Source: a virus (lineage: Duplodnaviria > Caudoviricetes). Taken from it: a stretch of DNA of 64,000 bases. A program made the position numbers and the translations under genes. The stretch covers positions 96,001 through 160,000 of the IMG/VR virus record IMGVR_UViG_3300028048_000040; one strand, 5' to 3'. This document shows, in pieces, positions 8,143-62,716 of the stretch; the first letter of the stretch is position 1; the number at the start of each line of letters is the position of its first letter. A model generated the notes under the pieces. That model was not told the origin of the DNA, ran no database searches, and saw only the letters and a program-made list of their open reading frames with translations.

Positions 8143-8153
8143 ACATCTATATA
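8143..8153 (+). promoter_or_regulatory. Late-type promoter motif ACA-N6-TA
   Basis: ACA-TCTATA-TA between terminator and phoH; same motif before many operons. Confidence 0.5.
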
Positions 8154-16387: not shown

Positions 16388-17311
16388 GTGAATAAAAAAA
16401 TGATGTCGTCACTTGTTTTATTAGCATCTTTATCTATTCTATCTATATTTATAGGAGTACATGATTTTACATATGAGATATTGATAGAAAGTAGAATACC
16501 TAGACTAATGGCTGTACTTCTTACTGGTGTAGGAATGGGCATAGCTGGTTTGATAATGATGCAAATATCTCAAAACAAATTTGCTTCTCCATCTACTACT
16601 GGTACAATAGAGTGTGCTGGTTTAGGAATAATATTATGTACTGCATTTCTACCAGAGACTAAGATATTTTATAAACTGTTTATCATCTTTGGTATGGCTA
16701 TGATAGGTACTAAGATATTTACAACTATTTTAGATAGAATAGTATTTAAAGATACTATGTTTATACCATTGATAGGTATCATGTATGGTCATATCATATC
16801 TGCAATAACTACAATGATAGCATATGATCAAAACCTACTCCAAGAACTTAGTATTTGGTTTGCTGGTGATTTCTCTGCTATTCTACATGGAAAATATGAA
16901 TTACTATATGCAATTATACCTGCAGTAATAGTTGCTTATATATATGCTAATGCTTTAACTATTATAGGATTTGGTCAAGATTTCTCTGAGAATCTTGGGT
17001 TATCTTATAATAAGATTAAAAATATAGGTTTGTTTATAGTTGCTTTCTTAGTAGCTTCTATAGTAACAGTAGTAGGACAAATACCATTCATAGGATTGAT
17101 CATACCAAATATCATCACTCTTATTAATGGAGACAATATAAAATCTAATCTACCATATATAGCAATCTATGGAGCTATATATGTATTGATTTGTGATATA
17201 CTAAGTAGAATACTGATATTCCCATATGAATTATCTGTATCTCTAATATCTGGTCTATTTGGTAGTATAATCTTTATGTATCTAATCTTAAGGGGGAAGA
17301 ACAATGCATGA
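16388..17311 (+). CDS. Fe-siderophore ABC permease (FatD/YclN, FecCD family)
   Basis: 'SRIPRLMAVLLTG..MGIAGLIMMQISQNKFASPSTTGT', 'IPFIGLIIPNI'. Confidence 0.93.
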   Translation: MNKKMMSSLVLLASLSILSIFIGVHDFTYEILIESRIPRLMAVLLTGVGMGIAGLIMMQISQNKFASPSTTGTIECAGLGIILCTAFLPETKIFYKLFIIFGMAMIGTKIFTTILDRIVFKDTMFIPLIGIMYGHIISAITTMIAYDQNLLQELSIWFAGDFSAILHGKYELLYAIIPAVIVAYIYANALTIIGFGQDFSENLGLSYNKIKNIGLFIVAFLVASIVTVVGQIPFIGLIIPNIITLINGDNIKSNLPYIAIYGAIYVLICDILSRILIFPYELSVSLISGLFGSIIFMYLILRGKNNA

Positions 17312-18266
17312 TTTTAAAACCATTTTCTATACCTCTATAGTTTTAGTTATTTCGACTTCTTTATTCTTCTTCTATGATCTTAAAGAGTCTATCTATGTAT
17401 ATTCTCTTAATATGAGATTAGGTCAAATGATTGGTATTCTATTAATAGGATATGCTATAGCTATTTCTTCAGTATTATTTCAATCTATTACTAATAATAA
17501 AATTCTTACTCCATCTATATTAGGATTCAATTCTCTATATCTGATGATTCAATCTCTAGTAATATGGTTATTTAGTGATACTAAGCCAAATTTCTGGTCT
17601 GTAAATGAATTCTTTGCATTTAGTGTAATATTAATGATAGGATTCAGCTTTATACTGTATAAACTACTATTCAAATCTTCAGTAAAGAATATATACTTTA
17701 TTCTATTAGCAGGAGTTGTATGTGGTACTGTATTTAGTTCTATATCTTCATTTATTAATAGACTTATAGAAACAGATAGATTTCAACTATTTCAGCTTAA
17801 AGCATATGCTAACTTTGACTTAATTCAATCTAATCTATTACCAATATCAATAGTACTAATTCTGTTATGCTCGTATATTGTGTATAGAAAGATACCTGAA
17901 TTAGATGTATATCTGATTGGTTCAGATAATGCTAAGATGTTAGGAATTGATATAGATAGACTACAGATTGTATCTCTTTGTGTTATATCTGTAATGGTAT
18001 CTATATCTACAGTATTAGTTGGTCCTATTACATTCTTAGGATTAATAGTGTCTAATATAGCATATACTCTTCTTAGAAGTTATTCTCTTAGATATATATT
18101 CCCACTATCTATTATATTATCATGGATTATTTTATCTATAGGATTGATTATTACTCAAAGAATAGCAACATTTGATCTTAATCTTACTATGTTGATAAAT
18201 GCATTTGGTGGAATATACTTTATCTATTTATTGATATGGGGGTCTTCTAATGATAAGAATAAGTAA
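17304..18266 (+). CDS. Fe-siderophore ABC permease (FatC/YclO, FecCD family)
   Basis: 'FQSITNNKILTPSILG', 'LVGPITFLGLIVSN', 'GGIYFIYL'. Confidence 0.93.
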   Translation: MHDFKTIFYTSIVLVISTSLFFFYDLKESIYVYSLNMRLGQMIGILLIGYAIAISSVLFQSITNNKILTPSILGFNSLYLMIQSLVIWLFSDTKPNFWSVNEFFAFSVILMIGFSFILYKLLFKSSVKNIYFILLAGVVCGTVFSSISSFINRLIETDRFQLFQLKAYANFDLIQSNLLPISIVLILLCSYIVYRKIPELDVYLIGSDNAKMLGIDIDRLQIVSLCVISVMVSISTVLVGPITFLGLIVSNIAYTLLRSYSLRYIFPLSIILSWIILSIGLIITQRIATFDLNLTMLINAFGGIYFIYLLIWGSSNDKNK

Positions 18267-19005
18267 TGTTACTAAAGCGTATAAGAATAATCTAGTATTG
18301 GACAGTGTATCTGTTTCTATTCCTAATTCTAAATTTGTATCTCTTATTGGTCCTAATGGATGTGGTAAGTCTACTCTTATAAATTGTATATGTAGTCTTA
18401 TAGACTATGATGGTCATATATTTATAGATGAAGTTCCTATTAAATCTATTCCTAAAAAAGAACTAGCAAAGAAAATATCTCTTCTTAAACAAAATTCATT
18501 TCATGATCTAAAGATCACTTCTAAAGAATTAATATCTTTTGGTAGATTTCCATATTCTAATGGTAATCTTACTAAAGAAGATGATAAGAAGATAGAAGAA
18601 GTTATACAGTTCTTAGAATTAGATTCATTACAATCTAAATATATCACTGAACTATCTGGCGGAGAAAGACAAAGAGTTTATATAGGAATGATGTTAGCTC
18701 AAGATACAGAATATATGATATTAGATGAGCCACTAAATAATCTAGATATGAAGAATTCTAAACACATTATGTCTCTATTAAAGAAATTTGTAGAAGAGAA
18801 GAAGAAAACAGTCATATTAGTAGTACATGACATAAACTTCGCTTCTATGTATTCAGATGAGATAATAGCAATTAAAGATCATGATATCTTTGCTAGTGGT
18901 AAAACTAAAGCTATAATCAATGAAGATGTGCTTACTTCTATTTATGATACACCTATTAGAGTAACTAATACAGATATAGGTATATTGTGTAACTTTTATA
19001 AATAA
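18250..19005 (+). CDS. Fe-siderophore ABC ATPase (FatE/YclP)
   Basis: 'GPNGCGKST', 'LSGGERQR', 'LDEPLNNLDMK', 'VVHDINFAS'. Confidence 0.95.
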   Translation: MIRISNVTKAYKNNLVLDSVSVSIPNSKFVSLIGPNGCGKSTLINCICSLIDYDGHIFIDEVPIKSIPKKELAKKISLLKQNSFHDLKITSKELISFGRFPYSNGNLTKEDDKKIEEVIQFLELDSLQSKYITELSGGERQRVYIGMMLAQDTEYMILDEPLNNLDMKNSKHIMSLLKKFVEEKKKTVILVVHDINFASMYSDEIIAIKDHDIFASGKTKAIINEDVLTSIYDTPIRVTNTDIGILCNFYK

Positions 19006-23529: not shown

Positions 23530-23553
23530 AGGATAGCTCATATGAGCTATCCT
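23530..23553. terminator. Perfect palindrome between convergent genes (AGCTCATATGAGCT family)
   Basis: AGGATAGCTCAT/ATGAGCTATCCT. Confidence 0.7.
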
Positions 23554-23557
23554 ATTG

Positions 23558-24172
23558 TTATAAAGAATATGAAATAACTGGAAAAAATCCCTGATATGCT
23601 GAACCATAATTTTTAACAGCACCATTTTTATCTAGACATATACCATTTTTTTTAGGATAATATATATAACTATTGCTATCATTTCCATTATAATTATAAG
23701 ATCTGCCAATTTCAGTATATATTCTAATCTCTGTTTCATTAGTATGATTATCTTGATATGATACTGAATATGCCATGCTATTACTATATCTATAAGAATA
23801 TTCTGAAATGAATCCATTTATTGTTGAGCCACGATTTGACAGATATCGCATCGTTGCTAATCTATTAATTTTAGTCTTAGTCCCATGAAGCCTTATATAT
23901 TCTGAGCGTAATATAAACCATTTATTATTATGGAATGCATTTGAGGGATAATTTTCCTTTTTATTATCCCATAATTTATCAGCGTTCCAAGGAATAATTA
24001 CTTTAAATATAGCTTCATCTACACTAATTAGTCTTATTTTAGTATTGGGAGTTCTATTATTTTCAATTCTTTTATTAAAGCTTTCATTTATATCTCTTTT
24101 AGTTATATTAAACTTAGACTGCAATTGGTCTAGCAGCCTAAGTGCCTCTTCCTTAGTAGTAGGTTCATTCAT
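23558..24172 (-). CDS. Cassette 1: DUF6273-like / C-type-lectin-like protein
   Basis: 'KIRLISVDEA', 'WFILRS', C-terminal 'GFFPVI' resemble the KIFLLSxDE / WWLRS / GVRP pattern; SD GGAGGAG. Confidence 0.55.
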   Translation of the reverse strand: MNEPTTKEEALRLLDQLQSKFNITKRDINESFNKRIENNRTPNTKIRLISVDEAIFKVIIPWNADKLWDNKKENYPSNAFHNNKWFILRSEYIRLHGTKTKINRLATMRYLSNRGSTINGFISEYSYRYSNSMAYSVSYQDNHTNETEIRIYTEIGRSYNYNGNDSNSYIYYPKKNGICLDKNGAVKNYGSAYQGFFPVISYSL

Positions 24173-24198
24173 TTATATCTCCTCCAATAAATTGTTTC

Positions 24199-24232
24199 TA
24201 CTTAGTTAAGTGGACATCCACTTAACTAAGTA
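24199..24232. repeat. Palindrome P1 (core CA): embedded ACA-N6-TA points away from cassette 1
   Basis: TACTTAGTTAAGTGGA-CA-TCCACTTAACTAAGTA. Confidence 0.95.
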
Positions 24233-24273
24233 AATAGATTGTTTTGATTAAAGATAGATATTAATAATAAATC

Positions 24274-24299
24274 TTCCTAGGGGATTATTCCCCTAGGAA
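24274..24299. terminator. Hairpin at the 3' end of cassette 2
   Basis: TTCCTAGGGGA-TTAT-TCCCCTAGGAA immediately after the stop codon. Confidence 0.75.
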
Positions 24300-24947
24300 T
24301 TATACTTTAAAACATGGTACAAATGTAAGAATTTGTTGAAAATGTAGTGTGTGAGATTTATAGTTATATGATATTACATTTGTTATCTCATTTAAATAAG
24401 ATGATTTATTTGAAGATGATGGTTCTATCATAGTACCTTCCCTACCTCCAACCCATGTTATATAATAAGTAAAAATTAGTGTTCCATTTATAATATTATT
24501 ATTATTAGATGAATTTTGCACAAGCAATCTACTAAATTTCCAATAAGTATTACCGCTAGCATTTGGTTCTGGTTTCTTTAAATTTTGAGAAATATCATTA
24601 TAATAATTTGTCTGGTATCCTGGTTTATTATAATTTGTTGTATTAATATCACCACAAGTTGGTATTATTGTATTATCAATGTTGTTACCATTTTTTTTAA
24701 TTGATAATTGTCCACCATAATAATATCTAGTACCTATTATATTATTTAACGTATCGTTTAACATATATTTTTTATATTTATTATTAGCTTCATTCCACAC
24801 TAGACAACATATAGTCTGTTTGTCTGATTTGTCAGTCAAATTAAAATCAGATCCAGCTTGTAAGTAATCCCCATTTTTTATTCCAAAAGATTTAGCTAAT
24901 GAAGTCATTAATTGTAAAGCTTCATCTTTATTTTTAGGATCATTCAT
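24300..24947 (-). CDS. Cassette 2: Asn-rich paralogue
   Basis: N-terminus like cassette 1 ('MNDPKNKDEAL'); 'TICCLVWNEA' and 'TLHFQQILTFVPCFK' like cassette 3. Confidence 0.8.
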   Translation of the reverse strand: MNDPKNKDEALQLMTSLAKSFGIKNGDYLQAGSDFNLTDKSDKQTICCLVWNEANNKYKKYMLNDTLNNIIGTRYYYGGQLSIKKNGNNIDNTIIPTCGDINTTNYNKPGYQTNYYNDISQNLKKPEPNASGNTYWKFSRLLVQNSSNNNNIINGTLIFTYYITWVGGREGTMIEPSSSNKSSYLNEITNVISYNYKSHTLHFQQILTFVPCFKV

Positions 24948-24972
24948 TTACAGTTCCTCCAATCAATAGATC

Positions 24973-25014
24973 TATCTACTTAGTTAAGTGGACATCCACT
25001 TAACTAAGTAGATA
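24973..25014. repeat. Palindrome P2 (core CA): embedded promoter motif points away from cassette 2
   Basis: TATCTACTTAGTTAAGTGGA-CA-TCCACTTAACTAAGTAGATA. Confidence 0.95.
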
Positions 25015-25034
25015 ATTCAATCGAAAGAATATAG

Positions 25035-25054
25035 GATAGCTCATATGAGCTATC
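25035..25054. terminator. Palindrome at the 3' end of cassette 3 (AGCTCATATGAGCT family)
   Basis: GATAGCTCAT/ATGAGCTATC. Confidence 0.65.
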
Positions 25055-25063
25055 ATCCTATAT

Positions 25064-25726
25064 TTAAAATTTAAAACAAGGAACAAATGTAGCTAATTGT
25101 TGAAAATGTAATGTGTAATTAATAGAAGATGAACCCCACTTTTGTGATATATCTAAAATAAATGACTGCTTATCAAATTCGCATATTTTATTTTGATTAT
25201 TAATCAAAAAAGATGCTATATCACTACCACCAGCTCTATTAAAAACAGCTTTTATAGATGATAATTGGTTGTTTACATTAAAAGAACTATTTTTAGAATC
25301 TTGGTTTATAATTCTGGTAAATTTTAGGTATGAATCACTACCAGAAATATAATTTTCACCAATACCACCATTACTATTATATACATTGTATTCTTGTGTA
25401 AATCCTGGTTTGTTTATATTATCATCTTGAACATGACCACAATTATCAATAATAGTGCCTTGAGATAAAACCTTACCATTTTGTGCATTTCTGATATAAT
25501 TGCAATTATAATAATACCACCTATTACCAGTTATAGTATTTACAGTATCATTTTTCATATATTGTTTATATTTATTATGGGCTTCATCTGATACTAGACA
25601 GCATATGGTTACTTTACTTGCATTTTCATTATTTACATTTATATTATTTTGTAATATTTCTCTATTTGTTATTCCATTTTCTTTCATCAATGATAGTATC
25701 TGATCAATGATATTTGATTTGCTCAC
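25064..25726 (-). CDS. Cassette 3: Asn-rich paralogue
   Basis: GTG start with SD GGAGGA; 'TICCLVSDEA', 'NKPGF', 'TLHFQQLATFVPCFK'. Confidence 0.8.
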   Translation of the reverse strand: MSKSNIIDQILSLMKENGITNREILQNNINVNNENASKVTICCLVSDEAHNKYKQYMKNDTVNTITGNRWYYYNCNYIRNAQNGKVLSQGTIIDNCGHVQDDNINKPGFTQEYNVYNSNGGIGENYISGSDSYLKFTRIINQDSKNSSFNVNNQLSSIKAVFNRAGGSDIASFLINNQNKICEFDKQSFILDISQKWGSSSINYTLHFQQLATFVPCFKF

Positions 25727-25754
25727 TTATACTTCCTCCAATCAAACGTAATTC

Positions 25755-25790
25755 CTACTTAGTTAAGTGGATGTCCACTTAACTAAGTAG
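25755..25790. repeat. Palindrome P3 (core TG, inverted): embedded ACA-N6-TA points into cassette 3
   Basis: CTACTTAGTTAAGTGGA-TG-TCCACTTAACTAAGTAG. Confidence 0.95.
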
Positions 25791-25821
25791 ATAACTCATC
25801 GAGATATATAAAAAATAATAG

Positions 25822-25843
25822 GGGAAGCTCATATGAGCTTCCC
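25822..25843 (-). terminator. Palindromic terminator insulating the cassette array from the upstream operon
   Basis: GGGAAGCTCAT/ATGAGCTTCCC with T-tract on the minus strand. Confidence 0.7.
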
Positions 25844-25870
25844 TATGTATTTATTCTTTTAGTTTATATT

Positions 25871-26771: not shown

Positions 26772-26852
26772 TCTAGCCTGAATCTGACATTAGGATTTCT
26801 TAAAAAACTCCACAGGGCAGTTGCCCTGTGGGAGTATACACACCATATCGTT

Positions 26853-28902: not shown

Positions 28903-29063
28903 TATACATCACCTTTTCTGCGTATCTCCTCTAACTCACCCTCAATAGAATAGTATATATCTAAAAAAATTTTTACTAAAAAAGAATAGAACTAGTTAAG
29001 CCTCTAGTCTATTCTTTAAGAAATATAGAAGATACTTAGAAATAAAATACTTATGCAGCCCTA

Positions 29064-29550: not shown

Positions 29551-29683
29551 AATAGAATAGTATATAACTGAAATTTTGAACACTCTTCAAAAATATCATT
29601 TTATCTATTCCTTCCTCAGACTCATACTCATAGGAATGGTATATAACTAAAAAATTTTTTACTTTGCAAAAACTAGGTAGATC

Positions 29684-29724: not shown

Positions 29725-32700
29725 ATGGCTTTAATGATTGATGAACTTCATCCTCTGAAGTTATACTCTGGTAATTATTTCTATAATATCCAGAAAGAAG
29801 ATAGAAAGAAAGGATCATTAGTGTATCTAATGACTCCTAATAAACAATCTTCTATCAATGTAATAAATCATAAGTTAGGAAAGAGAAATCTTATTCTATT
29901 CCAATCTTATTTCTTAGATAGAAATATAGATTTCATTATAAATGGTAATCTAAGTGAAAGTAAGACTTACAATATCAATGATGAAGAAGTTATACCAGAA
30001 ATAGGTATAACTGAATCTCTTATGATAGATAATAGAGATGAGATATCCTTAACAGAGAATGCTCTTATATATAATGGAGAAGATTATAAAGAAAGAATAT
30101 TATTTCCAGATGATGTAGATGATATATTATCTGAAGCATCTCAGTATAAGACTAAATATGGTTCTTATAATCTTACTGCTATATTTAAGAATATGCTATA
30201 TAAGCATAGACTTAAAACAAATAAGGATGTACTAAAAATCTATGATGAAATTAAAAAATCTTGTGATCTTATAAAATTTACTTATGTAGATCCAAGATTA
30301 TATAAAGGAAGAAATCTATTCTATGATTGGTCTTATTATACAGAGATATTCTTCAAAGAGAATTCTAAGTTCCAACAAGAAAGAGGATTAGATGTATTCT
30401 TCAGTTTTATGGATAGATTTATAACTGATAGAAGATTCCCAGATTATAATATTAAGACTATAGTTATACCAGTAAATGATTGGTGTAGAGGATTAGAAGA
30501 TCCATATGATTTTAAGAAGAATATAAATCCAATCTCTCTATTCTTTAGAAGATTTAGAATGAACTTTACTCAATTTGATAATTGGAATAACCATAATATT
30601 CTCTTCTTAGGAACTAATGGATTCTTTACTATGAAATTAGATTCCTTTGATCCTAATAAGAATCTTTCTAGATTTAAGATGTGTTGTGATAAGCTTATTA
30701 GGGAAGATTATAGCGATGCGGAGGTTATTGATACTGATTCTAAGACTATGATGATGAGCTTTATTGCAGATAGATTAGCTCAAGGTGGTATAGAATTAGA
30801 CAATATATCTGGTGCTACTAAGCATTTCTCTAGAGAAGAGATTAAAGATATGGGAACAATGAAGAATCCTACTCTAGAGAAAGATAAGTCTATTAAGAAA
30901 GCTATCTTAGTACAGAAACTAGAAAAGATAGTAAATCAATCTAAAGATGCTAATGAAGTTCTTAAAAGATTTGAAGATAATGATGATAGTGAAGAGAATG
31001 AGCAATTAAAAGAACTATTGTTAGATATCCAATCTGATGATGGTGTTAAGATGAATCAGGCTAGAACTGATAGAATGCAGTTGACTAGAAAAGAGTTACT
31101 AAAGAAACAGATCAATGGCAAATCTGTAGCAGATCTTATGGATCAATTCTCTAAGAATTATGATCTTAAAGAAGCAGGAGTAGAGATAGATTCTATTGAT
31201 GAAACTTGGAAACATCTTAAGTTCCCCTCTTTCTATTCTTCTTACACTAAAGAAGATATGGAAGCAGATATAGTTGCTGTATTTAAACACTATACAACTG
31301 TAACCCATCCAATGAATATCTTAGATATCAATGTAGAGAATACTTCTACTGCTGAAGATTATGTAAATACTTGGACTGTTAAGTATGAAGATGCTGAAAC
31401 AGGCAAAAGATATACAATGGTAGTAGATATGCCTAGATTGATTGATAATCGTTTCATGATGTTAAGAGGTAATGAGAAAGTATTGATTTCTCAGTTTATG
31501 CTTATGCCTATTATCAAAACATCTGAAACTGAATGTCAGATGGTATCTAACTACAACAAGATATTCATCAGAAGAAAATCACCAACAGGTAATGGTAAAT
31601 CTACAGTTATCATTAATAAGCTTATGAGAGCTTTACTAAAGTACGATGGCAAAGATTTCAAAGTAAATACTGGTGATAATAGAAAAGTAGCATCTAGATA
31701 TGAATTACCAATAGACTTCATTGATATGACTACCACATTTGATTCCATTCAATTTAAAGATGGTTCTTATATTTCTTTCAATATGAAAACTCTATCAGAG
31801 ATTCCTATAGATAAGAAATTCTTAACTAAGGATGATGCTAAACTTACTGAAGAAGAATTGAATAGAAAGTATTTAGCAATCTATGTAAATAAAGATGGTA
31901 AGAGAGAGCCTATCTTTAATGATGGTTGTGATAAGTTTATTTTAGATAAGATAGAAGAATATGATACTTCTAAGAGATTCAAAGAGCTATATGATGTATC
32001 TTCTGTATCTAAGAAACTTATGTATGCTGAAGCATCTATCTTAGGTATCAAAATACCAGTAATAGTATTGCTTTCTTATAATATAGGCTTACAGAAAGTA
32101 TTATCTCGTCATAATATCAAATATGAATTTACTGAGAAAAGACCATCTAAAGATCAATTCTATATCAAATTCTCTGATGGATATCTAGTATATGAACCTA
32201 AATCTGAAGCAGATAATTTATTAGTAAATGGATTAATGCAATTTGATACATCTGAATATTCTATATCTGATATCAATTCTAAAGACATGTGGATTCCAGT
32301 ATTAGATGAATTTGGTGGTAGAGTTAAAGCAGATGGTTTAGATAACTTCTATGATCTCTTTATGGATCCAATTACTACAGAAATTTGTAGACTTACTAAT
32401 CTACCAACTGATTATGTAGGTGCTATGCTGTATGCTAATGATCTATTGATAGATAATAAGTTCAATCGTCATACTGATATTACTGGTAATAGATTAAGAA
32501 CTAATGAGATTATAGTAGGTCACTTATATCTAGTAACTTCTAGAGCATTTGGTGATTATAGAAAGACTATAAAGAAGAATCCTAACTTAGCTCAGTTTAC
32601 AGTAAAGAAATCTGCTGTAATCGATTCTATCTTAACTCACGATCAGACCTCTTCTGACTTATCTACATTAACACCACTTCTAGAATCTGAATCTGGTGGT

Positions 32701-34197
32701 AAAGTAACATTCAAAGGTCTATCAGGTATGAACTCAGAGAGAGCATTCTCTGTAGATAAGAGAACCTATGATAAGTCTATGCTAGGTATAGTAGGTATTT
32801 CTACTGGTTTTGCTACAACTGTAGGTGTTAATAGACAGCTTACTATAGATGCCAATATTAGAAATAAGAGAGGATTTGTTGGTAATACAGAAGCAAAGAA
32901 TCTAAATAGTACTAATGGTTTCTCTATGTTTGAAGCATTATCTCCAATGGCTATTAATCATGATGACCCATTCCGTACAGCAATGGCATATACACAAACT
33001 GGTCAACACCAAATGACTACTAGAAAATCTATGCCTAACTTGGTAACCACTGGAGCAGATCAAGCTATCGCTTATCTCACTTCTAATAAATTTGCTTATA
33101 AGTTTAGAGGTAATAGAGGAGTAGTCAAAGAGATCAATGATCAATATATGATTATTGAAGATCAAGATACTAAAGAATGTGAATTTGTTGATCTTAGAGA
33201 AACTATTAGAAAGAATTCTGATGGTGGTTTCTATCTTACTACTAAACTTACAGCTACAGAAGGATTGAAGAAAGGATCTAAACTAAAACAAAATGAAATT
33301 GTTGCATATGATAGGAAGAACTATTCTAAGTCTGTTGGTACTACTGGAGATCCTCACGATATTTCTTATAATATTGGAACTCTTGCTAAAGTAGCTATAA
33401 TGAATACAGATATGGCATTCGAAGACTCTTGTGTAGTAGATGAATATGTATCTGATGCATTGACTACAAATCTATGCTATATGAAAGATATCAATCTAAA
33501 TAAACTCTCAAACGTATATAATCTAGTAAAACCTGGAGATAAAGTAGAAGCAGATGATAGCTTATTAGTATTCCAGGATTCATTTGATGAAGAAGAAGCA
33601 AATGAACTATTAAGAAATATCTCTATGGATCAAGAATTCATTTCAGATATTGGTAGAAAACATATCAGATCTAAAACATCTGGTGTAGTACAAGATGTAA
33701 AGATATATAGAACTTGTGAAATATCTGAACTCTCTCCAACATTACAAAAAATATGTAAAGAACATGATGCCAGAATCAATAAACTCAAGAAAGCTATGAG
33801 AGATAATAAGATAGAAAGGGAATATACTCTAGAACCTACTAAGAAATTAGAGCAAACTGGTAAACTAAAAGGTTTAGAAGGTGTAAGAATAGAGATCTAT
33901 GTAAAAGCAGTAGATAAGTTTGGTATCGGTGATAAACTTGTATTCTATCAAGCTTTAAAAGGTGTATGTTCTTATACTATTCCTAAAGAAGTATCTGGAT
34001 ATACGGATTATAGACCTAATGAAAAAGTAGGAGCTTATCTATCTCAGATTGGTACATTCAAACGTATGGTTCCTTCTTGCTATCTATTAGGATTTACTAA
34101 TAAACTATTAGTAGAACTTACTAGACAATGCCAAGAAGAACTGGGAATCAAATGGAGACCAATACAAGAAATAATGGAAGATGAACCAGAAGAATAA
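29725..34197 (+). CDS. Phage multisubunit RNA polymerase beta-like subunit with long N-terminal extension
   Basis: RpoB-like motifs 'GNEKVLISQ', 'HDDPFRTAMAYTQTGQ', 'AFEDSCVV', 'GDKL....KGV', 'KRMVPS'; ends before the RpoB C-terminal GGQRFGEME region. Confidence 0.92.
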   Translation: MALMIDELHPLKLYSGNYFYNIQKEDRKKGSLVYLMTPNKQSSINVINHKLGKRNLILFQSYFLDRNIDFIINGNLSESKTYNINDEEVIPEIGITESLMIDNRDEISLTENALIYNGEDYKERILFPDDVDDILSEASQYKTKYGSYNLTAIFKNMLYKHRLKTNKDVLKIYDEIKKSCDLIKFTYVDPRLYKGRNLFYDWSYYTEIFFKENSKFQQERGLDVFFSFMDRFITDRRFPDYNIKTIVIPVNDWCRGLEDPYDFKKNINPISLFFRRFRMNFTQFDNWNNHNILFLGTNGFFTMKLDSFDPNKNLSRFKMCCDKLIREDYSDAEVIDTDSKTMMMSFIADRLAQGGIELDNISGATKHFSREEIKDMGTMKNPTLEKDKSIKKAILVQKLEKIVNQSKDANEVLKRFEDNDDSEENEQLKELLLDIQSDDGVKMNQARTDRMQLTRKELLKKQINGKSVADLMDQFSKNYDLKEAGVEIDSIDETWKHLKFPSFYSSYTKEDMEADIVAVFKHYTTVTHPMNILDINVENTSTAEDYVNTWTVKYEDAETGKRYTMVVDMPRLIDNRFMMLRGNEKVLISQFMLMPIIKTSETECQMVSNYNKIFIRRKSPTGNGKSTVIINKLMRALLKYDGKDFKVNTGDNRKVASRYELPIDFIDMTTTFDSIQFKDGSYISFNMKTLSEIPIDKKFLTKDDAKLTEEELNRKYLAIYVNKDGKREPIFNDGCDKFILDKIEEYDTSKRFKELYDVSSVSKKLMYAEASILGIKIPVIVLLSYNIGLQKVLSRHNIKYEFTEKRPSKDQFYIKFSDGYLVYEPKSEADNLLVNGLMQFDTSEYSISDINSKDMWIPVLDEFGGRVKADGLDNFYDLFMDPITTEICRLTNLPTDYVGAMLYANDLLIDNKFNRHTDITGNRLRTNEIIVGHLYLVTSRAFGDYRKTIKKNPNLAQFTVKKSAVIDSILTHDQTSSDLSTLTPLLESESGGKVTFKGLSGMNSERAFSVDKRTYDKSMLGIVGISTGFATTVGVNRQLTIDANIRNKRGFVGNTEAKNLNSTNGFSMFEALSPMAINHDDPFRTAMAYTQTGQHQMTTRKSMPNLVTTGADQAIAYLTSNKFAYKFRGNRGVVKEINDQYMIIEDQDTKECEFVDLRETIRKNSDGGFYLTTKLTATEGLKKGSKLKQNEIVAYDRKNYSKSVGTTGDPHDISYNIGTLAKVAIMNTDMAFEDSCVVDEYVSDALTTNLCYMKDINLNKLSNVYNLVKPGDKVEADDSLLVFQDSFDEEEANELLRNISMDQEFISDIGRKHIRSKTSGVVQDVKIYRTCEISELSPTLQKICKEHDARINKLKKAMRDNKIEREYTLEPTKKLEQTGKLKGLEGVRIEIYVKAVDKFGIGDKLVFYQALKGVCSYTIPKEVSGYTDYRPNEKVGAYLSQIGTFKRMVPSCYLLGFTNKLLVELTRQCQEELGIKWRPIQEIMEDEPEE

Positions 34198-40150: not shown

Positions 40151-40296
40151 AATGCATCTCCTTAATTCATAACATTTAACACCTCATAACTTACCCCTAG
40201 AGCTTAATTGCTCTAGGGGGTGTTATTTGTTTGCCGAGACATAGGTGTAAGTCTAGACTAAATAAAAGACTAGGAGAAAGGAGGAAATTGATAATT

Positions 40297-43200
40297 ATGG
40301 CAAGCAATAGCATTGTAGACTATCTTAAAAATGTAGGTCAATCTGTTAAGTTTGCTGCTATCGAAAGTGTAACTGAAAAGACGCCTAATCTACAAAAAGT
40401 ATTTGGTGAAAACAACAAGAAATATGTTCAAGAACTCTATAAAGATGTGAATCAACATAGACAAGAATTGAATATGATTGATCGCATTAGAAATGCGACT
40501 GTTTTCAAACAGATATCTGTAGGTTGGGATAATCTAAAGGATTCTATCAAAACTGGTAAATTCAAGGATGATTCTAGAAGTACTGGTTTTGATGAGATGG
40601 AAATGATGTTCGCAATGATGGGAGATGACTTCTTAGGTGGAGATTCAGATCTTATCGAAGCTGAAATGAATGGAGAAGAAACAGGCTCAACTAACGATCA
40701 TCGAATCCGTGGTATACCAGAAATCACTAAAGGTGATGCTCTTGTTGCAACAGCATCAGCTACAGCAACAAAGAATGCAGCCTCTACTATATCTAAAGCC
40801 ATTGTTAGATCTGCTGAATTAACAGATATAACTGCAAGAAAGTCTACAAATTTACAATTAAGGGCCCTGCAACAACAAGCAAACATTTTATCTAGTGGTT
40901 TTCAACAACTATCTAGCTCATTGCATACCATAAATCAATTTAATAATCAAGTTGTCATAACTCATGCTCAAAATAGCAGAATGTTCTTTGAACAAGCCAC
41001 TGCATTAGCTCAAGAGAGAAATGCTATTCTTAGAGAAATGCTAGAAATGCAGCGTGAAACCTTTGGTGCTACAATGAAATCAAATCTGTCTTCTGATGCA
41101 AATGATTTGACTAAAATGAGTAAAATCTTTGATAAAGAAAAAGGATTTGATTTAAGAGCCTATATGAGCTTAATGCAAAAGAGAATGAAAGAAACTCCTA
41201 TTGGAATGATGATGATGTCTATAAAGATGCTTCCAATGATGATAGGAGAAGTAGTTCAAAATCCATTGCATTATATTGCTAAAATGGGTATAGATTCAAT
41301 CATAGATAATAGTCTTAAGAAAGCTATTTATAATATAGATCAGTCAATAAGTGGAATGATATCTACTGGACTAGCTAAACTTGCTAATTATGGTAAAGAT
41401 AAAGCTACTAAGAATACATTGTTAGGTCAAATAGCTAGTTTTTTTGGTGTAAGAAATGAAAATACTAGATTATCTGCAGTAGATACTTCTAAATATAATA
41501 AAGAAGCAATTCAATGGAATGGCATTGCTCAAAAAGCTTTAGTAGAAGTTATACCAGGTCATTTAAGAAGAATAGAAGCTGCTCTTACTGGTGAAGGAGA
41601 AAGAGTATTCGATCTCCAATCTGGTAAGTGGTCTACAATGAAAAAAGTAGCTAATATAGAAAAAGATATAGATCGCAAAGTATTCAAAGAAACTTTCTCT
41701 AAAGAGAAGAATCAACTTCTTAATATGATGCAATTTAAAAATAGAGGAGAAATGAGAGATTGGATTAAAGCTCTTGATAGCTTCTTTAAAGGAGTTAGAA
41801 ATAGAGGTATGGTGGATTATAACCATATTAGAGAGAAATCTAGTGAATATGGAGATAATGAAAATATAGTTAAAGCTATAGCATACATGATCCATTCTGG
41901 TGGATTAGATTCTTCTCAGATATTCAATCTTACTAATAAAATCAATGAAGGTAATGCTAAGAAAGCTGCTATGATAAGAGATCTTAGCCCAGCTAATCAA
42001 TCTCTTGTAACTGAAGCAGTTAATAATTCTTATAATGCTAAATGGGCTGCTGGTACTGGATCTATATATGGTGCAAATGGTAAACAGCAAGTAGATAAAA
42101 ATGGTAGATGGTTATCAATGCCATTTAATGATCTTACTAAACTTACTGATACCAGAGGATACACATTATATGATTATCAATATAATATTCTTCAAACTCT
42201 TTTAAATATGCAAAGATCTGGTGGATTAGGTGGTGGAAGACCTGCAGGCCCTGTAGGACCAGTTGGACCATCTAATGGTGGTATACCAATTCAGAATCCT
42301 CAGAATATAATAGCTGGTGGATTGGTAAGAACTGGAAATACTTTCACTAATGCTGTTCCATCAGAAGCAAAAGATCCAAATTCTGCTCAAAGACAGCATG
42401 CTGCTAATCTAGTACAAAAAGCTCAAGAAAAATCAATATCTAGAAGAGCTCTTTATCATCCAGATAAAAGTGGATTAGATGAAGAGCAAAAACTCGACTT
42501 CTCTGTAGAAAGAATTAAAAATGCAAGTAAAGAAGAATTAGAAGAAATGATAGCTCATATGTATTTTGCTGGTCAAACTGGTAAAGAATATAGAGCTAAT
42601 ACTAAAGTAGCATCTTCTGGTGGAATATTTGGAGATCTTAAATCTGCTGCTAGAGGTTTAGGAGTTTCAAGTATTGATAGCTTCATGGCAGATATGCAAG
42701 AAGCAACTTCTATTGCAGATAAATTCAATGTTGTTGGCGAAGCATTAAGATCAATGACTTCTGCCCCTCAAAAGATATTAACTTCAGTTCTTACTGAAGC
42801 AGATAGATTCATGTATGAATTTATGTTTGGAAATCCTGTAGGCACTGAAAAGGATGAGAATGGTAAACCGATAGAAGGATTCTTTGGTAAAGTTACTCAT
42901 GAATTTGGTAAAACCATGGATAATCTCAATAATAAATTCAATGAGTGGTTTAAAGATACATTCAAAAAAGGTGCTGGTGGAATAGCAGGATTTTTCAAAG
43001 GAGTTCTTGAAGATTATTTCAATATTGATGTAGATGAAAAGGTTGAACAGGCTAAACGCCACGTGAAGAAATATACTAATAAAGTCAAAAAAGGTGCATT
43101 ATCTGCTGGTGCTGATCTATTTGGTATTGCCAAAGAAGCAGTATTAGGAACAGCTCAAGATATGGGTATTTATGAACCAGATGAAGAGGAGGAACAAAAA

Positions 43201-46200
43201 AAAGAGCAACAAACTCCTCCTACAGCATATAGAGGAATTAGAAAATATGATTCTAAATATGGTATAGGTGTAGTAGGTCCTGGTGAAAAAATAATATCTC
43301 CAGGTAGAGGAAAGGTATTAGATAATACTACTGGTTATAAAGTATATGCTTTGCAATATGGAGATTCTGTAATACCTTCTTATCTAAATACATCTAATGC
43401 AGGCAGAGGCAGAGTAACTCCTCAATCTCTTGCATCTCAAGAATATAATGAAAAATCTTTAGCTAAAAGTATAGCAAGAGGCAATGTACCAATATTAGGT
43501 ACATTTAGTGGTGCTAATGCATCATGGAAAGATATAGGTGGATGGATAGGAGAGCTTAAACGTAAAGAGCAAGAAAGATTTGAGCATGGAGATGGAACTC
43601 CTAAATTAGAAGATGCTAAATCAAAACGTGGATTCTTCCATAACTTTGTAAATTGGATGACTGGTTATAATGAACCAGAATTTACTGAAGATCAAATCAA
43701 AATGCAAGAGTTCATTAAAGATATAGTAAATAGTGCTACTAAAGCTGCTATTGAAGCTAATGGTGGAGCATTTGAAGATGAAGAATCAAAAGGAAGATCT
43801 ATTACACAAGCTGGCTTTGAAATGGCTGGTAAACTAAGAAGAGGTAATGTAGATCTTAATACTAATGAATTCCAAGAAGCATTAAAAGAAGTTCTCGCTA
43901 TGAGTGAGAATATCAAAGATCCAGATTTTAGAGATACACTTCAATTTATTTTAAATACTGCTGGATATAAAGGTGAATTTGATACTGTAGATGATTCTAA
44001 AAAAGTAAGAAGATCAAGAAGAAATAATCTATTTGTTGGTGTAAATCAATTTATGGATAATGCCTTTGGTATTGATTCTAAAAAAGCAATAGATACAGCA
44101 GATAAAACTATTAGAAAGAATCTGCCAGAACTCGCTAAAGGTGGAACATTTGGTGCTTTATTAAGTACAGTTCTTCCTCTTGGTGGTCCTTTAATGGGTG
44201 CACTTGTTGGTGCTGGAGCTTCTGTATTAACTAATAGCAAATCTTTCCAATCCTATATGTTTGGAACAGAAATAACAGATAAAGATGGAAATGTAATAGA
44301 TAGAAAAAATGATGGTATTGTATCAAGAAAAACTGTAAAAGCTATTCAAAGATATTTACCAGATGCTAAGAAATATGGTATTACAGGTGCATTAGCAGGT
44401 CTTGTTCTTCCTTTTGGTCCACTTGGTGGTTTGATGATTGGTGCTGGTGCTTCTTTCTTAAAGAACAACAGTAGATTCCAAGAATTTATGTTTGGTGAAG
44501 AAGGAGGCTTAATCAATAAAGATAGAAAAGAAAGAATCAAGAGAGCTCTTCCAAATATAGGTGTCGCTACACTAGGAACGTTATTCCTCGGACCTTTTGG
44601 TATCGTAGGTAACGCTATGCTTGGTGCTGGTCTAGGTATTTTATCTACAACAGAATCATTTAAACGTATTATGCTCGGTTCTAAGGATCGTAATGGTATA
44701 AGACGTGGTGGTTTAGCTGATATTATTAGAAGGCAAATTACAGACCCATTCAAGAAATCAATGCAAGATATTCAAACTAGATTAGCTGCTTGGTTCAAAG
44801 ACGATCTATTCAATCCTGTAGCTAGAACTATTAAACCACTTGGTAGAAATATTACTGGTGAAATATCTAGACTCCTTAGATGGGGAGCAGGTCAAATCTT
44901 TGGTAAGAAAGATGAAAAAGAAAAATCAATATTTGGTAAATATGGACTCAAATCTGTAGATAGAATGCTGGGATTGGTTCGTAATGCTGGTGGTCTAGGT
45001 AAATTTATTACTGGTGGAATAGGCAATGTAATTGGTGCTGGTGCACATGCACTAGAAAATCAAGTAGGTAAGAGATTAGAAAGAAGAGCTTTCAGAAAAG
45101 GATACTATGAAGATGGTACTCTTGCTGATGAAAGAATGGCTCGTGGTGCTGAATTAGGTCTTGATGCAAATAATGCAGATCAATATGCATTAGGTGGTTT
45201 AGATCAGTTAATGGCTAAACTAGAACAGGGGCCAAATGCTCAGAAGAACCTAACATCTTTAGCAGCTGCATTAAGTGCTATTCAATCAAGAACTGAAGGT
45301 ACAGACGATAACCTCAATAGACAAATAGCTGCAGAAAGAGATAATATTATTTCTAATTCTGAGAAGCTATATTCTGATTATCTAAAGAAGAATCCAACAG
45401 AAAAGAATCCTCATGATCTATATCGAAAAGTAGAATCTATGAGAGATAAAATGCTCAAGATGGCAAAAGCAGAAAACTTTAATCCAGAAATAGCTCAAGG
45501 TGAATTTGCAAAAGAATTAGCTAAATCTGATCTTCCTAGAGAGATAAAAGATCAAATGATGGAATTGTTCTTAGATTCTGGTGGCTCTATAGCCAAATTC
45601 CAGAGTGCTAAAGATAATCTAAGTAAACGTAACTATGCTGAAGCAGAAATAGCCAAACTATTAGGATATAATGTAGACGAACAGCAATATGATAAATTAG
45701 ATGAAAGTGTCAAAAAACAAATAGAAGCAATAAAGAAACACCCAGAAGCAATATCTGCTGTTAATAATGATATTAGAACTCTAAAAGAAAGAGCAAGCTC
45801 TGATGAGTCTGCTGCAGCAAAACTAAAAGATCAAGTAACTGATCCTGGAGATCTGTCTATAATCAATAATATGGAAAAACAGGTAGATCAGAATGATGTT
45901 ATCATTGCCACTTTAGAGCATATAGCTAATATACTACAGACTAATGATCCCAAGAAAAGAGAAGAGCTTCAAGCTCAATTTAAAGATACTCTAGATAAAT
46001 ATAGAGGTACTGGAAATAGCGATAAGATAAATAATGCTATTGCTAATGCCAAAATAGCATCTCAAAGAGCTAAGAATCAAAAAGACAAAGATGATGCTAA
46101 AGTAGAACAAGGTAAAGATTTAAATAAAGAAATCTATGATGATTCTTACTTTGACCCAGATAAAGCTATCAATAATCCAGAGATAAAAGCTAAATTCGAA

Positions 46201-49200
46201 AAAGATCATGGAAAATTACTTGAAAATTGGCACGATCAATACCAGAAAGGTCTGCTATCAACAGAAGACTACTATCGTAGAAGAAATGAGTTATTAAAAG
46301 GTACATGGGATGAATACCATGGCAATACAACAATGGGTGCTATTAAGCACGATATAAAACTAGTTGGTGGTAAAGTTGCTAAAGCAGCTAATTCAATTAC
46401 AGAGAAAAGAGAAAAAGCTCTAGATTATATAGACGAAAAGACTACAGACTTCTTAAATGAAGCTCCTGATAAAATAAAAGAAAATATAGTAGAACCAACA
46501 GCAGAAGCTTTTGGTATGGTATCTAAACCTATCATAGCAGGTTTCCAGATGCTAGGTAAAGCAGTAATTGGTTTAGCTAGAAAGATATCTGGAGAGTATG
46601 AAACAATTGCTGATAAAGCAAATCCGATGTCAAATATTGAGAAAGATCAAACAGACAAAAATATTCCTCCTACAGCTACATATGGTTTACCATTCTTTGG
46701 TACATTTGCTGGTGGTACTGCTGCTGCAGGCGCTGCCAAATCAGGTGGTGGATCATTAATAGGTTCTGTTCTCAAAGGTGCTCTTGGTGGAGCTAAAGAC
46801 TATTTTACTGGTGGATCAAGTGATAAGAAAGAAGAACCTTCAAACAATGTAAAAGAAGTTCAACAATCTACTCCTTCTGCAGGAGAAGTCAAATCTACAG
46901 CTGGTCTCGTGGCATCCTTCGACCACTCTAAGGCGAATGGTGGTGCTCCCGATATCAATGCTAAAGATAATGTATCTTATACATCTGATGCTGATGGTAA
47001 CCTAGTGGCTATCGTAAAAGGGCCAGATGGAACACCAATGAAATTAAAGAACAAAGATAATGCTGAAATTGAAAAGAAACATCAACAAGAATTTGAATTC
47101 AAAGAAAGATCTGCAAATGCATTAGAAGCAATTGCTGCTAGATTAGGTGCCAAAGTTAAAGGTGTGGGTAAAGCCATAGCTGATGCTGGTGGTGGACTAC
47201 TTGGCGGTTTGCTAGATTCTATAGGTGGACTCATAAACACATTGTTCCTTGGTCTCCCTGTAGGTACATGGTTGATTAGCAAACTTAAATCTTTACCAGG
47301 CAAATTATTCAAATTATTAGGAAAACTAGTTCCAAATTCAATCAAAAAATTCGGTGCCGATTTAATGGCAAAAGTTGCAAAACTTCCTGGGAAACTAGGA
47401 GAAATGGTAGGAAAAGGTTTCGCTTCTGTTAAATCATTAGTAGGAAAGAAACTAGGTCAAATAGCTCCTTCACTTACCAAAAACTTAGTAAAATTATTAT
47501 CAAAGAGTAGAGTAGGTGCGCTATTACTTGGTGGTGGTGCAGTTGCTACTGGTGCTCTCAAAATGTTTGGTGTTATAGATGATGATGATAAAACTCCATC
47601 ATTACCTCCTGGATCAAAAGTGATAGAAAAAGAAAATGGTTCAAAGGTAGTTGTAGATGAAAATGGTAAAGAACTAGATATTCCAGCAGAAGAAGTAGAA
47701 TCTGAAGAAGATTCTGGTATGAGTGCTGGTAGTCTTGCTAAAACAGCAGTAGCTGGTTATGTTGGTCGTGAAGCTGCTAAAAAAGTAGGATTAAAGAGTG
47801 CAGGTGGTAGAGCTGCTGGTGCAACACTTGCTAATATAATTGCTAATGGTGGAGAAGTAGATGCTGGTACTATAGCTGATTTTGGTATGTCTTATGGAGC
47901 TGAAAAGCTAATAGATAAATTTAGTGGAAATAAAGTACCAACAACTGGTTTAGAAGCAGAAGGTCCTAAAAATAGACCTGCAGGTCAATATAGAAATGCT
48001 ATAGAAGCTAAGAAAGCTGAGATTGCTCAAAGAAAAGCAACAGAAAAGAGTATAGCTCGTCATCAAAGAAAACTTGCACAACAAGCTGCAAAGAGTGGAG
48101 CCAATGTAATTGAAAACAATGCAACTAATCCATCCATTTGGGATAAAGCTAAAAATGCTGCTAGCAGTCTAAAAGATTGGGCATCTAGTAAATTCTCAAC
48201 TGGTACAGAATCAGCCAAAAGTATATTCAAGACTGGAATGAATTCTGAAGTAGCTAATAAGCTCAAAGATACTACTTCTTTGGTTAAAGATACTTCTAAA
48301 CAAGGTGTAGAGGCTGCTGTTGGTAAAATTAGATCTGCTATGCAAACTGTAGTAGAAGCTGCAGGAAAATGGCTACCAGGCAAGACTGTTGGGGAGGCTG
48401 TATCTAATTTCTGTAAGAAAATTATGGAAAAGGTCACATCTTCTCAAGGTATGCAAATACTCCAAAAGAAGTTATCTCAGCAAGCTGCTACAGCTGCTGG
48501 AGGTGCTGCTCTTGGTATTGGTGCCGTTGCAATAGGAACTATGTTCTGCGTAACTTCTTTTATTAGTGGTTACAATCATGCAGCAGAACAATTTGAAGTT
48601 CAAGAGTCTGTTGTTACTAATGGTATGAAAGTAATATCTGGTTTAGTTCATGCCATTCATTGTGCTATTGGATTAATTCCTATAGTTGGATTAGCTTTTG
48701 CATTGATAGTATCTCCAAAACAGATGCTTGATTATGCTATAGACTTAATTGGTCCAGCAGTAGGATTATCAAGACAAGATTTACAAAAATTACAAAAATC
48801 AGGTCAAAGTGTAGTAGAAAATAATGTTAAAGCTGCTCAAGAATATGGTAAAGGCAATCCTGAAATCAATGATAACCATTCTGGTGGTGGATTCTTTGAT
48901 ACAGTTAAAGAAACTGCTGCTGGTGCATGGGATAAAGTTAAAAGCGTTGCATCCTCTGCTTGGGAAGGAGTTAAATCTGGAGCAAGCTGGGTAGGAGATA
49001 AAATTTCAAGTGCTGGAAGTTGGATCAAGAATAAACTTACTGGTCAAGGTAAACACTCTACTTATGGTAGAGGAGGATTATTTGGAACTGGATTCCACTC
49101 TCAATTAGATCCTGCTATTGCAGGTATGGGATTCAATGTATCTGGAGATACAGAAAAACAAACTGTAAAAGATTCTGCTTGTGGTCCAATGGCTATGGCA

Positions 49201-62586: not shown

Positions 62587-62716
62587 TGACTTACTCCTCC
62601 TTATTAATTTATTTTAGCATAATATTAATATAGTGAATACTTAATCTAATGTTTCTCAAAATAGGCTTTTAAGGACCAATTAGTAAGACAACCTGTTAAG
62701 AAAAGGGGGGAATAAG

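Follow-up and report, generated by a model that had tools for sequence, protein, structure and literature searches.

Three paralogous genes on the minus strand of a Caudoviricetes genome (IMG/VR record IMGVR_UViG_3300028048_000040) are each preceded, 44-47 nt upstream, by a long perfect palindrome whose two central base pairs occur in both orientations. We analyzed these palindromes in a 64,000-nt stretch of that record (bases 96001-160000; hereafter the window) and at related metagenomic loci. The complete source record, rated as such, measures 342,328 bp and has a G+C content of 31.6%. Judged by its distribution among the relatives, the palindrome is a cis element belonging to this gene family, and the 2-bp micro-inversion at its centre is, by the same comparisons, real and recurrent and takes place without a recombinase. 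A preliminary description of the locus had seen in this inversion a promoter switch that sets one cassette ON and the two others OFF. We tentatively favour a different function, namely a symmetric site on duplex DNA that would be a putative operator for a dimeric regulator and for which the orientation of the core would be neutral. On the sequence data at hand, the promoter-switch reading is possible but disfavoured.

Palindromes upstream of a paralogous gene family

In window coordinates, the locus is laid out as follows:

23530..23553, G+C-rich perfect hairpin of the AGCTCATATGAGCT type, terminator-like on both strands, between the endolysin gene and cassette 1
23558-24172, minus strand, cassette 1 gene, 204 aa (P0004)
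24199-24232, palindrome P1, 16-nt perfect arms; core at 24215-24216, CA on the plus strand and TG in gene sense
24274..24299, hairpin between cassettes 2 and 1, terminator-like on both strands
24300-24947, minus strand, cassette 2 gene, 215 aa (P0003)
24973-25014, palindrome P2, 20-nt perfect arms; core at 24993-24994, CA on the plus strand and TG in gene sense
25028..25064 (core 25035-25054), hairpin between cassettes 3 and 2
25064-25726, minus strand, cassette 3 gene, 220 aa (P0001), GTG start
25755-25790, palindrome P3, 17-nt perfect arms; core at 25772-25773, TG on the plus strand and CA in gene sense
25821..25844, hairpin upstream of cassette 3

Direct reading of the sequence confirmed that the same palindrome stands before each paralog, that its plus-strand core is CA in P1 and P2 and the reverse complement TG in P3, and that hairpins are present at 23530, 24274, 25035 and 25822, all as the preliminary description had it. 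The 28-nt palindrome pattern had three matches in the window and none in 100 shuffles, and the whole 342,328-bp genome contains three copies, P1-P3 only. Three of the four bounding hairpins have the AGCTCATATGAGCT core in common, which occurs four times in the genome. A scan for terminator-like structures gave 8 matches where 0.6 were expected, and perfect RNA hairpins are abundant throughout this genome.

Profile and word searches yielded about 20 members of the gene family, all of them metagenomic. Every member with visible upstream DNA has a perfect palindrome with a 2-nt centre at 36-48 nt before its start codon. The 17 family sites considered here come from the window and from the loci L004, L007, L014-L018, L021 and L024-L026; their arms are 16-29 nt long, and the spacer measures 2 nt in all 17. 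In the 16 sites that were aligned, the inner 20 bp, TTAAGTGGA-YR-TCCACTTAA, consists of two 9-bp half-sites around a CA:TG step and is invariant except for one position, which in one lineage is altered in both arms together (GTGGA/TCCAC to GTTGA/TCAAC). This alignment has 20 invariant columns, which lie within the arms. Past TTAA the outer arms are wholly different between lineages, yet still complementary over up to 29 nt.

The arms change in concert. All 16 inner pairs are Watson-Crick pairs in each of the 16 aligned sequences, and 6 of these pairs have changed on both sides, with zero one-sided or G-U intermediates. The corresponding covariation score, 0.344 compared to 0.144 in shuffles, was exceeded in none of 500. 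Furthermore, the ACA and the TAA contained in the palindrome are invariant in 17/17 sites with conservation ending right after the TAA, and no dinucleotide other than CA or TG is found at the core of any of the 17. Judging by these alignments, the inner 20 bp is under sequence selection, while the outer arms are kept complementary only.

The number of cassettes varies from 1 to 3 among the relatives, in tandem or convergent arrangement, with two convergent cassettes in L016. Exact-pattern scans of IMG/VR returned no relative, the two AT-core matches inside a coding region being due to chance. The scan of JGI metagenomes for the exact pattern returned one true relative (L007) and two chance palindromes, and neither a related-locus search nor blastn against GenBank phages gave a match. 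The contigs of relatives often end in the palindrome or at most about 30 nt from it (starts of L017, L020, L027, L007 and L015), for which loss of coverage at the hairpin, short k-mers or real cassette heterogeneity could each be the cause. In L027, unrelated sequence takes the place of the palindrome.

The three cassette proteins are 25-39% identical to one another, with 39% and 25% identity of two of them to the third. In family members, a conserved two-helix segment at the N-terminus is followed by a variable body, and a GFFPV motif stands at the C-terminus; none of them had a usable match in Pfam, PHROG, a PDB profile search or the ESM Atlas. An AlphaFold2 model of a family protein was poor overall (pLDDT 40.6), while the N-terminal two-helix segment alone was well modelled (pLDDT ∼77). 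On inspection, the sequence pattern of this N-terminus resembles a helix-turn-helix. The genes lie between endolysin/tail-fibre genes and an early block, and this position, together with the conserved N-terminus and the variable body, is compatible with either accessory early proteins or adhesin-like parts. One family member (P0006; L018 531-980) retains the N-terminal 60-80 conserved residues alone, joined to another C-terminal part with a weak match to an HNH-endonuclease PHROG. Two GIY-YIG/NUMOD3 proteins, P0023 and P0024, match the family profile weakly.

Inversion of the 2-bp core

In gene sense, the core reads CA at 5 of the 17 sites (window P3, L016_A, L021, L025 and L026) and TG at the other 12. 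Orthologous sites differ in this respect. Window P3 is CA-sense, while the corresponding site is TG-sense in L007, where the flanks are ∼94% identical, and in L004; similarly, L018 is TG-sense and L021 and L025 are CA-sense. The loci L016 and L017 were obtained from different samples and encode an identical protein; they agree at 4,657 of 4,659 positions, the remaining two being the core bases. To count such events, we used a tree of the leaders and the first 150 nt of each gene from which the core had been removed, leaving out L007 (its contig stops short of the gene) as well as the duplicates L005, L019, L020 and L017_B. The well-supported branches of this tree force at least four independent flips, and the core label is no more clustered on it than shuffled labels are (215-222 of 500 shuffles were as low). 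The preliminary description had taken the CA/TG difference for a true 2-bp inversion and had proposed a comparison of related genomes for other orientations; both orientations were indeed found, and the inversion recurs in nature. By these comparisons, flips are frequent in these phages.

Both orientations were seen between samples only, and inversion of the segment between two palindromes was not seen between close relatives, in which the core alone differs. The excess of TG-sense sites (12:5) is not significant (one-sided binomial 0.07), and the notion that only first cassettes are CA-sense was dropped for the same reason (p ∼0.13). No locus has more than one CA-sense site, and L004 and L017, both fully visible, have none.

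Palindromes disturb de Bruijn graphs and the flipped example in L017 lies only 16 nt from a contig end, but an assembly or sequencing artefact of the hairpin can be practically discounted, as window P3 lies inside a 342-kb contig, its CA/TG/TG gene-sense pattern with P2 and P1 is repeated in a second assembly (L019, an ENA k141 contig that may derive from the same reads), CA-sense sites are also found well inside L016, L021, L025 and L026, the same kind of flip occurs at other hairpins in several samples, and assemblers are unable to invent the flipped form because a k of 115-141 spans the arm plus flank.

As a control, all perfect hairpins in the window and the fetched loci that have a non-palindromic spacer were grouped by their arms, and their orientation was checked against the flanks. 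Exact spacer flips were observed for the hairpin CATAGAGCA-TT/AA between L015 and L024, and for CAGACTCCA-TT/AA between L018 on the one hand and L021 and L025 on the other. A further control hairpin lies in the window itself:

26810..26831, intercistronic hairpin CACAGGGCA-NN-TGCCCTGTG; spacer AC (gene sense) here, GT in L004 and L026, AT in L007

In view of the AT intermediate in L007, the AC/GT difference of this CACAGGGCA hairpin could also stem from single substitutions. Unlike the palindrome core, its spacer thus takes a third value. Two control hairpins with loops of 4 and 7 nt were not flipped.

Template switching is known to homogenise the arms of inverted repeats and to invert spacers of 2-5 bp reversibly when the arms exceed 9 bp (PMC8604942). 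Since ordinary hairpins with 2-nt spacers vary likewise, the flip is best seen as this known type of spacer inversion and not as a dedicated switch; it also strikes hairpins devoid of any ACA and hence bears no mark of having evolved for switching. A micro-inversion special to these sites is not supported. The accompanying remark that template switching was possible, no recombinase being adjacent, fared better: in the complete 342-kb genome, PF00239, PF00589 and PF01548 (serine, tyrosine and IS110 types) had no match at E <= 0.1. As no recombinase was found, template switching is the likely cause, and it also explains why the arms changed on both sides at once.

Readings of the palindrome

Two models fit both the strict CA:TG core and its free orientation, namely a symmetric protein site and an ACA-requiring promoter that is reversed by the flip. 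We lean, with some reserve, towards the former. A dimeric regulator would bind the inner 20 bp on duplex DNA, on which sites with CA and TG cores become identical upon rotation by 180 degrees, leaving core orientation free. The regulator could be supplied by the family's own helix-turn-helix-like N-terminal segment. Replication template switching within the perfect inverted repeat would generate the CA/TG difference and at the same time keep the arms perfectly complementary, and the resulting flips would presumably be neutral for a two-fold symmetric binder. The operator is preferred over the promoter switch because it explains the nine invariant positions per half-site, which a promoter does not.

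Such an operator would gate the transcription of each cassette, whether this comes in from the early operon upstream or from a weak promoter nearby. The phage carries split multisubunit RNA polymerase genes (two beta-like and two beta'-like fragments in the 342-kb genome), and by this gene set it is judged to be an AR9/phiKZ-type jumbo phage. Its early-type motif, AGTAAA followed after ∼12 nt by TAG-NN-ATATACTAT-N6-G, is very strong, with ∼60-80 copies before genes genome-wide. In the form TATACTAT-N6-G it parallels the AR9 early promoter motif AAATATATATTAT-N6-G (PMC5312081), also written ATATATTAT-N6-G. The three cassettes form the far end of a minus-strand block that is headed by two early promoters. 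Copies of the early-type motif noted in the window are:

9379, 28957 (minus strand), 29564 (minus strand) and 56348, copies of the early-type promoter consensus by motif match
28950..28957, minus strand, early-type promoter core TATACTAT at the head of the minus-strand block; second copy at 29557-29564

Several points weigh against the operator. The family of the candidate binder is without a Pfam, PHROG or PDB match and models poorly as a whole (pLDDT 40.6), and the helix-turn-helix was called by inspection of the N-terminus. An operator needs a promoter, and at the cassettes none was recognised beyond the minimal ACA-N6-TAA within the palindrome. The strict CA:TG core, the edge of conservation at the TAA and the 36-48-nt spacing are equally expected of a working ACA-N6-TAA promoter. 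In addition, the excess of TG-sense sites, at a binomial probability of 0.07, may hint that orientation is not fully neutral. Finally, the palindrome may act at the level of RNA, which we consider unlikely.

In that case, the palindrome would form a 5'-leader hairpin on read-through transcripts and either stabilise or process the cistron (as a 5' stem-loop, RNase III-type) or limit translation around the Shine-Dalgarno (SD) sequence, with the loop flip from AUGU to ACAU being nearly neutral. The leaders are indeed much more stably folded than their shuffles (z -7.7 to -9.3), and perfect RNA hairpins are plentiful in this genome. The stems of P1 and P2 extend by G-U pairs over the SD and AUG, and the 3' arm overlaps the SD in L014, L015_b and L016_B. 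Sense flanks also out-fold antisense flanks at 15/15 sites (p = 6e-5), but base composition accounts for most of this asymmetry, as the mean z relative to shuffled flanks is only -0.6. Sequestration of the SD by the palindrome flanks was barely better than with shuffled flanks and was likewise judged compositional. A purely RNA role fits less well, because a freely flipping loop should accept point changes whereas the core is solely CA or TG, and because an RNA stem would tolerate some G-U pairs or mismatches, of which the 16 inner pairs show none in 16 sequences. Rfam gave no match, nor anything near threshold. A mini-ORF in the TG-sense leaders, ATG-TCC-ACT-TAA, has no usable ribosome site, lies within the stem and was treated as a coincidence.

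The promoter switch put forward in the preliminary description would work through a minimal ACA-N6-TAA late promoter whose direction is set by the core: a CA-sense site would be ON, a TG-sense site would be OFF and fire into the upstream hairpin, and spontaneous spacer inversion would provide each cassette with a recombinase-free phase-variation switch. The premise is sound. The sequence ACA-N6-TA occurs at 3.7 per kb upstream of genes compared to 1.1 per kb genome-wide, with a peak at 30-50 nt before start codons, and because of this enrichment a late-promoter class like that of the AR9 non-virion RNA polymerase, AACA-N6-TA/G (PMC5312081, PMC5449584), exists in this phage, in keeping with its split polymerases and its AR9-like early motif. 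The palindrome reads ACA-TCCACT-TA on one strand only, as had been stated (the plus strand in P1 and P2, the minus strand in P3), and its ACA stands at the usual distance from the start codon, 36-48 nt in all family members. The invariance of ACA and TAA, the stop of conservation at TAA and the core that is always CA or TG all suit a promoter, as do the fast flipping between two natural orientations and the limit of one CA-sense site per locus. No other promoter was recognised between the upstream hairpins and the genes; in particular, no cassette has a TATACTAT-type early motif between hairpin and gene.

The claim of an exact late-motif match nevertheless stood only in part: the minimal ACA-N6-TA(A) is there, but the phage's own extended profile is violated. 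We built this profile as a two-component mixture from 47 well-placed ACA-N6-TA sites, the palindrome being in the training set. Its confident members read ACA-(T/A)-T-N-N-R-R-TAA followed by an A-rich stretch, C being practically absent from the final two positions of N6 and infrequent at +2. With its ACA-TCCACT-TAACTAAG, the palindrome scores -5.5 bits (posterior 0.06), a value at the 19th percentile among candidate promoters and at the 71st among background ACA-N6-TA sites. It has a C at N6 position 5, a base that the ∼35 confident promoters hardly ever carry there (modelled frequency 0.01), and it is also off-profile with a C at +2 and a G at +6. Its ACA-N6-TAA is preceded by G and not by A, though this position is unconserved here (A 16, C 11, G 11 and T 9 of 47). 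Moreover, its N6 is invariant, although late promoters in general do not conserve N6.

The inferred wiring fared no better. Of the family sites, 12/17 face the 'OFF' direction, and L004 and L017 lack an 'ON' copy altogether. The cassettes had also been called insulated, which is an unsafe inference: 28 other genes in the genome follow a perfect hairpin and have no promoter that could be recognised ahead of the ribosome site, so transcription must often read through intercistronic hairpins. Given the poor profile score, the 'OFF' majority and the loci without an 'ON' copy, we rank the promoter switch below the operator and hold it to be quite unlikely. Slightly more doubtful is the version in which the palindrome would be a two-way minimal promoter for the non-virion RNA polymerase, with the frequent recombinase-free 2-bp flip reversing its firing and populations always mixed for the family members that are switched on. 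A host-type promoter was considered as well, since TGGACA on the CA strand resembles a -35 hexamer, and rejected as the scan total did not exceed that of shuffles. To our knowledge, phages of this type do not rely on the host polymerase.

Other late-type ACA-N6-TAA candidates with the extended consensus (ACA followed by T, TAA preceded by purines and followed by an A-rich stretch) were noted in the window at 8143, 19039, 29684, 35548, 37656 and 62688 on the plus strand and at 62652 on the minus strand. The variant ACT-N6-TAA is likewise enriched upstream of genes; it was all that emerged when a third (middle) promoter class was sought by dyad enrichment, and it is absent from the cassette leaders. 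Outside the window, at G000:C1:217466-217495, a zero-spacer perfect palindrome, AAATTAATACCCACATGTGGGTATTAATTT, carries ACA-N6-TA on both strands; it precedes a minus-strand gene by 41 nt and may represent a symmetric promoter site working both ways.

Lastly, the palindromes could be recombination joints that mediate gain, loss, inversion and exchange of cassettes, either by homologous recombination of the kind known from promoter early stem-loop (PeSL) elements or through a recombinase cutting at the 2-bp core, the flips being a by-product. Identical palindromes are direct and inverted repeats of each other at once, a repeated hairpin-plus-palindrome unit flanks each gene, cassette number ranges from 1 to 3 between relatives with the convergent pair in L016, and the 2-bp non-palindromic core resembles serine-invertase sites. 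The contigs L017, L020, L027 and L007 end at or near a palindrome, but such breaks are also expected from short k-mers and poor hairpin coverage. We give this reading little credence: the 342-kb genome yielded no recombinase gene, conventional site-specific recombination cannot flip the core alone, and the inner 20 bp is conserved among lineages whose outer arms differ, which speaks for recognition and not only for homology.

Some further features of the genome were recorded. An ORF of 1,490 aa at window 29725-34197 has a beta-subunit RNA polymerase domain and would be an unusually long, perhaps fused, beta-like subunit; a giant ORF of 4,513 aa (window 40231-53772) follows ∼6 kb downstream. 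Within the phage structural region, a transporter-like module (window 16388-19005) comprises an ABC-transporter ATPase-like gene (18250-19005) that adjoins two PHROG 12197 paralogs (16388-18266), and in L026 the neighbouring gene matches FecCD permease. Four loci outside the window have (AT)11-15 tracts (G000:C1:231732-231761, 250223-250252, 275271-275293 and 277140-277166). These tracts directly follow a short 'ATGA..ATGAARGAT' gene start and look like slippage-prone dinucleotide repeats at the 5' ends of paralogous genes.

Significance and comparison with known systems

The micro-inversion itself is a generic and already known type of mutation. At this locus, the speed of 2-bp spacer inversion in the perfect palindromes of jumbo-phage genomes can be seen in a clean example from nature. 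The locus also adds a 20-bp palindromic element that is new, is strictly conserved and accompanies a single gene family undergoing rapid diversification. Since the ACA of the late motif is completed by the flipped dinucleotide, a generic copying error might set promoter direction without a recombinase. If the two-way promoter were true, no smaller invertible promoter would be known, and replication template switching alone would drive it; if the flip cannot act as a switch, the case cautions against reading function into flipped hairpin centres.

Dimeric helix-turn-helix operators (about 18-22 bp) are matched here by a 20-bp core with two 9-bp half-sites and by a central flexible CA:TG step that is conserved yet free in orientation, as expected of a two-fold symmetric dimer. 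In contrast to such operators, the palindrome extends far past the half-sites, and no overlapping promoter was recognised besides the minimal ACA motif. In PeSL cassettes of T4-type phages (PMC2839356, PMC4122927), too, a stem-loop unit precedes each small variable gene in a plastic region, and cassette number varies between close relatives. The present unit differs in lacking an early-promoter motif, in being tied to one protein family instead of unrelated ORFs and in its much longer stem (16-29 bp) with a conserved apex.

As in the AR9 late promoter, the site has ACA-N6-TA with TAA at the usual start-codon distance, in a phage with AR9/phiKZ-type polymerase genes and an AR9-like early motif. 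However, it reads GACA instead of AACA, violates the extended consensus of its own phage, has a start site that is predicted, and lies inside a perfect palindrome in which other positions are conserved for reasons that a promoter cannot explain. With invertons (fimS of E. coli, hin/gin-type) it shares a segment between inverted repeats that is found in both orientations upstream of variable paralogs; here, however, the segment measures 2 bp compared to about 100-1000 bp, the genome lacks an invertase gene, flips also occur at ordinary hairpins, and promoter activity is only predicted and disfavoured by the profile score. The shape of hix/gix-type serine-invertase sites, with inverted half-sites and a 2-bp non-palindromic core, is also seen here, but without an invertase.

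The closest parallel in kind of event lies in template-switch inversions. Like those surveyed in yeast (PMC8604942), the flips described here involve perfect arms of more than 9 bp, a short spacer and an exact reverse complement, leave the arms untouched, and are recurrent, homoplasious, reversible and independent of a recombinase; Ripley-type quasipalindrome mutations and the 'small inversions' of chloroplast hairpins (reviewed in PMC12371153) are events of a like kind. Three features set the present case apart: the palindrome is conserved and its spacer is itself under selection, always presenting the CA:TG step; the spacer coincides with the ACA of a phage promoter motif; and inversion seems to be rapid enough for orientation to become random across the family tree.

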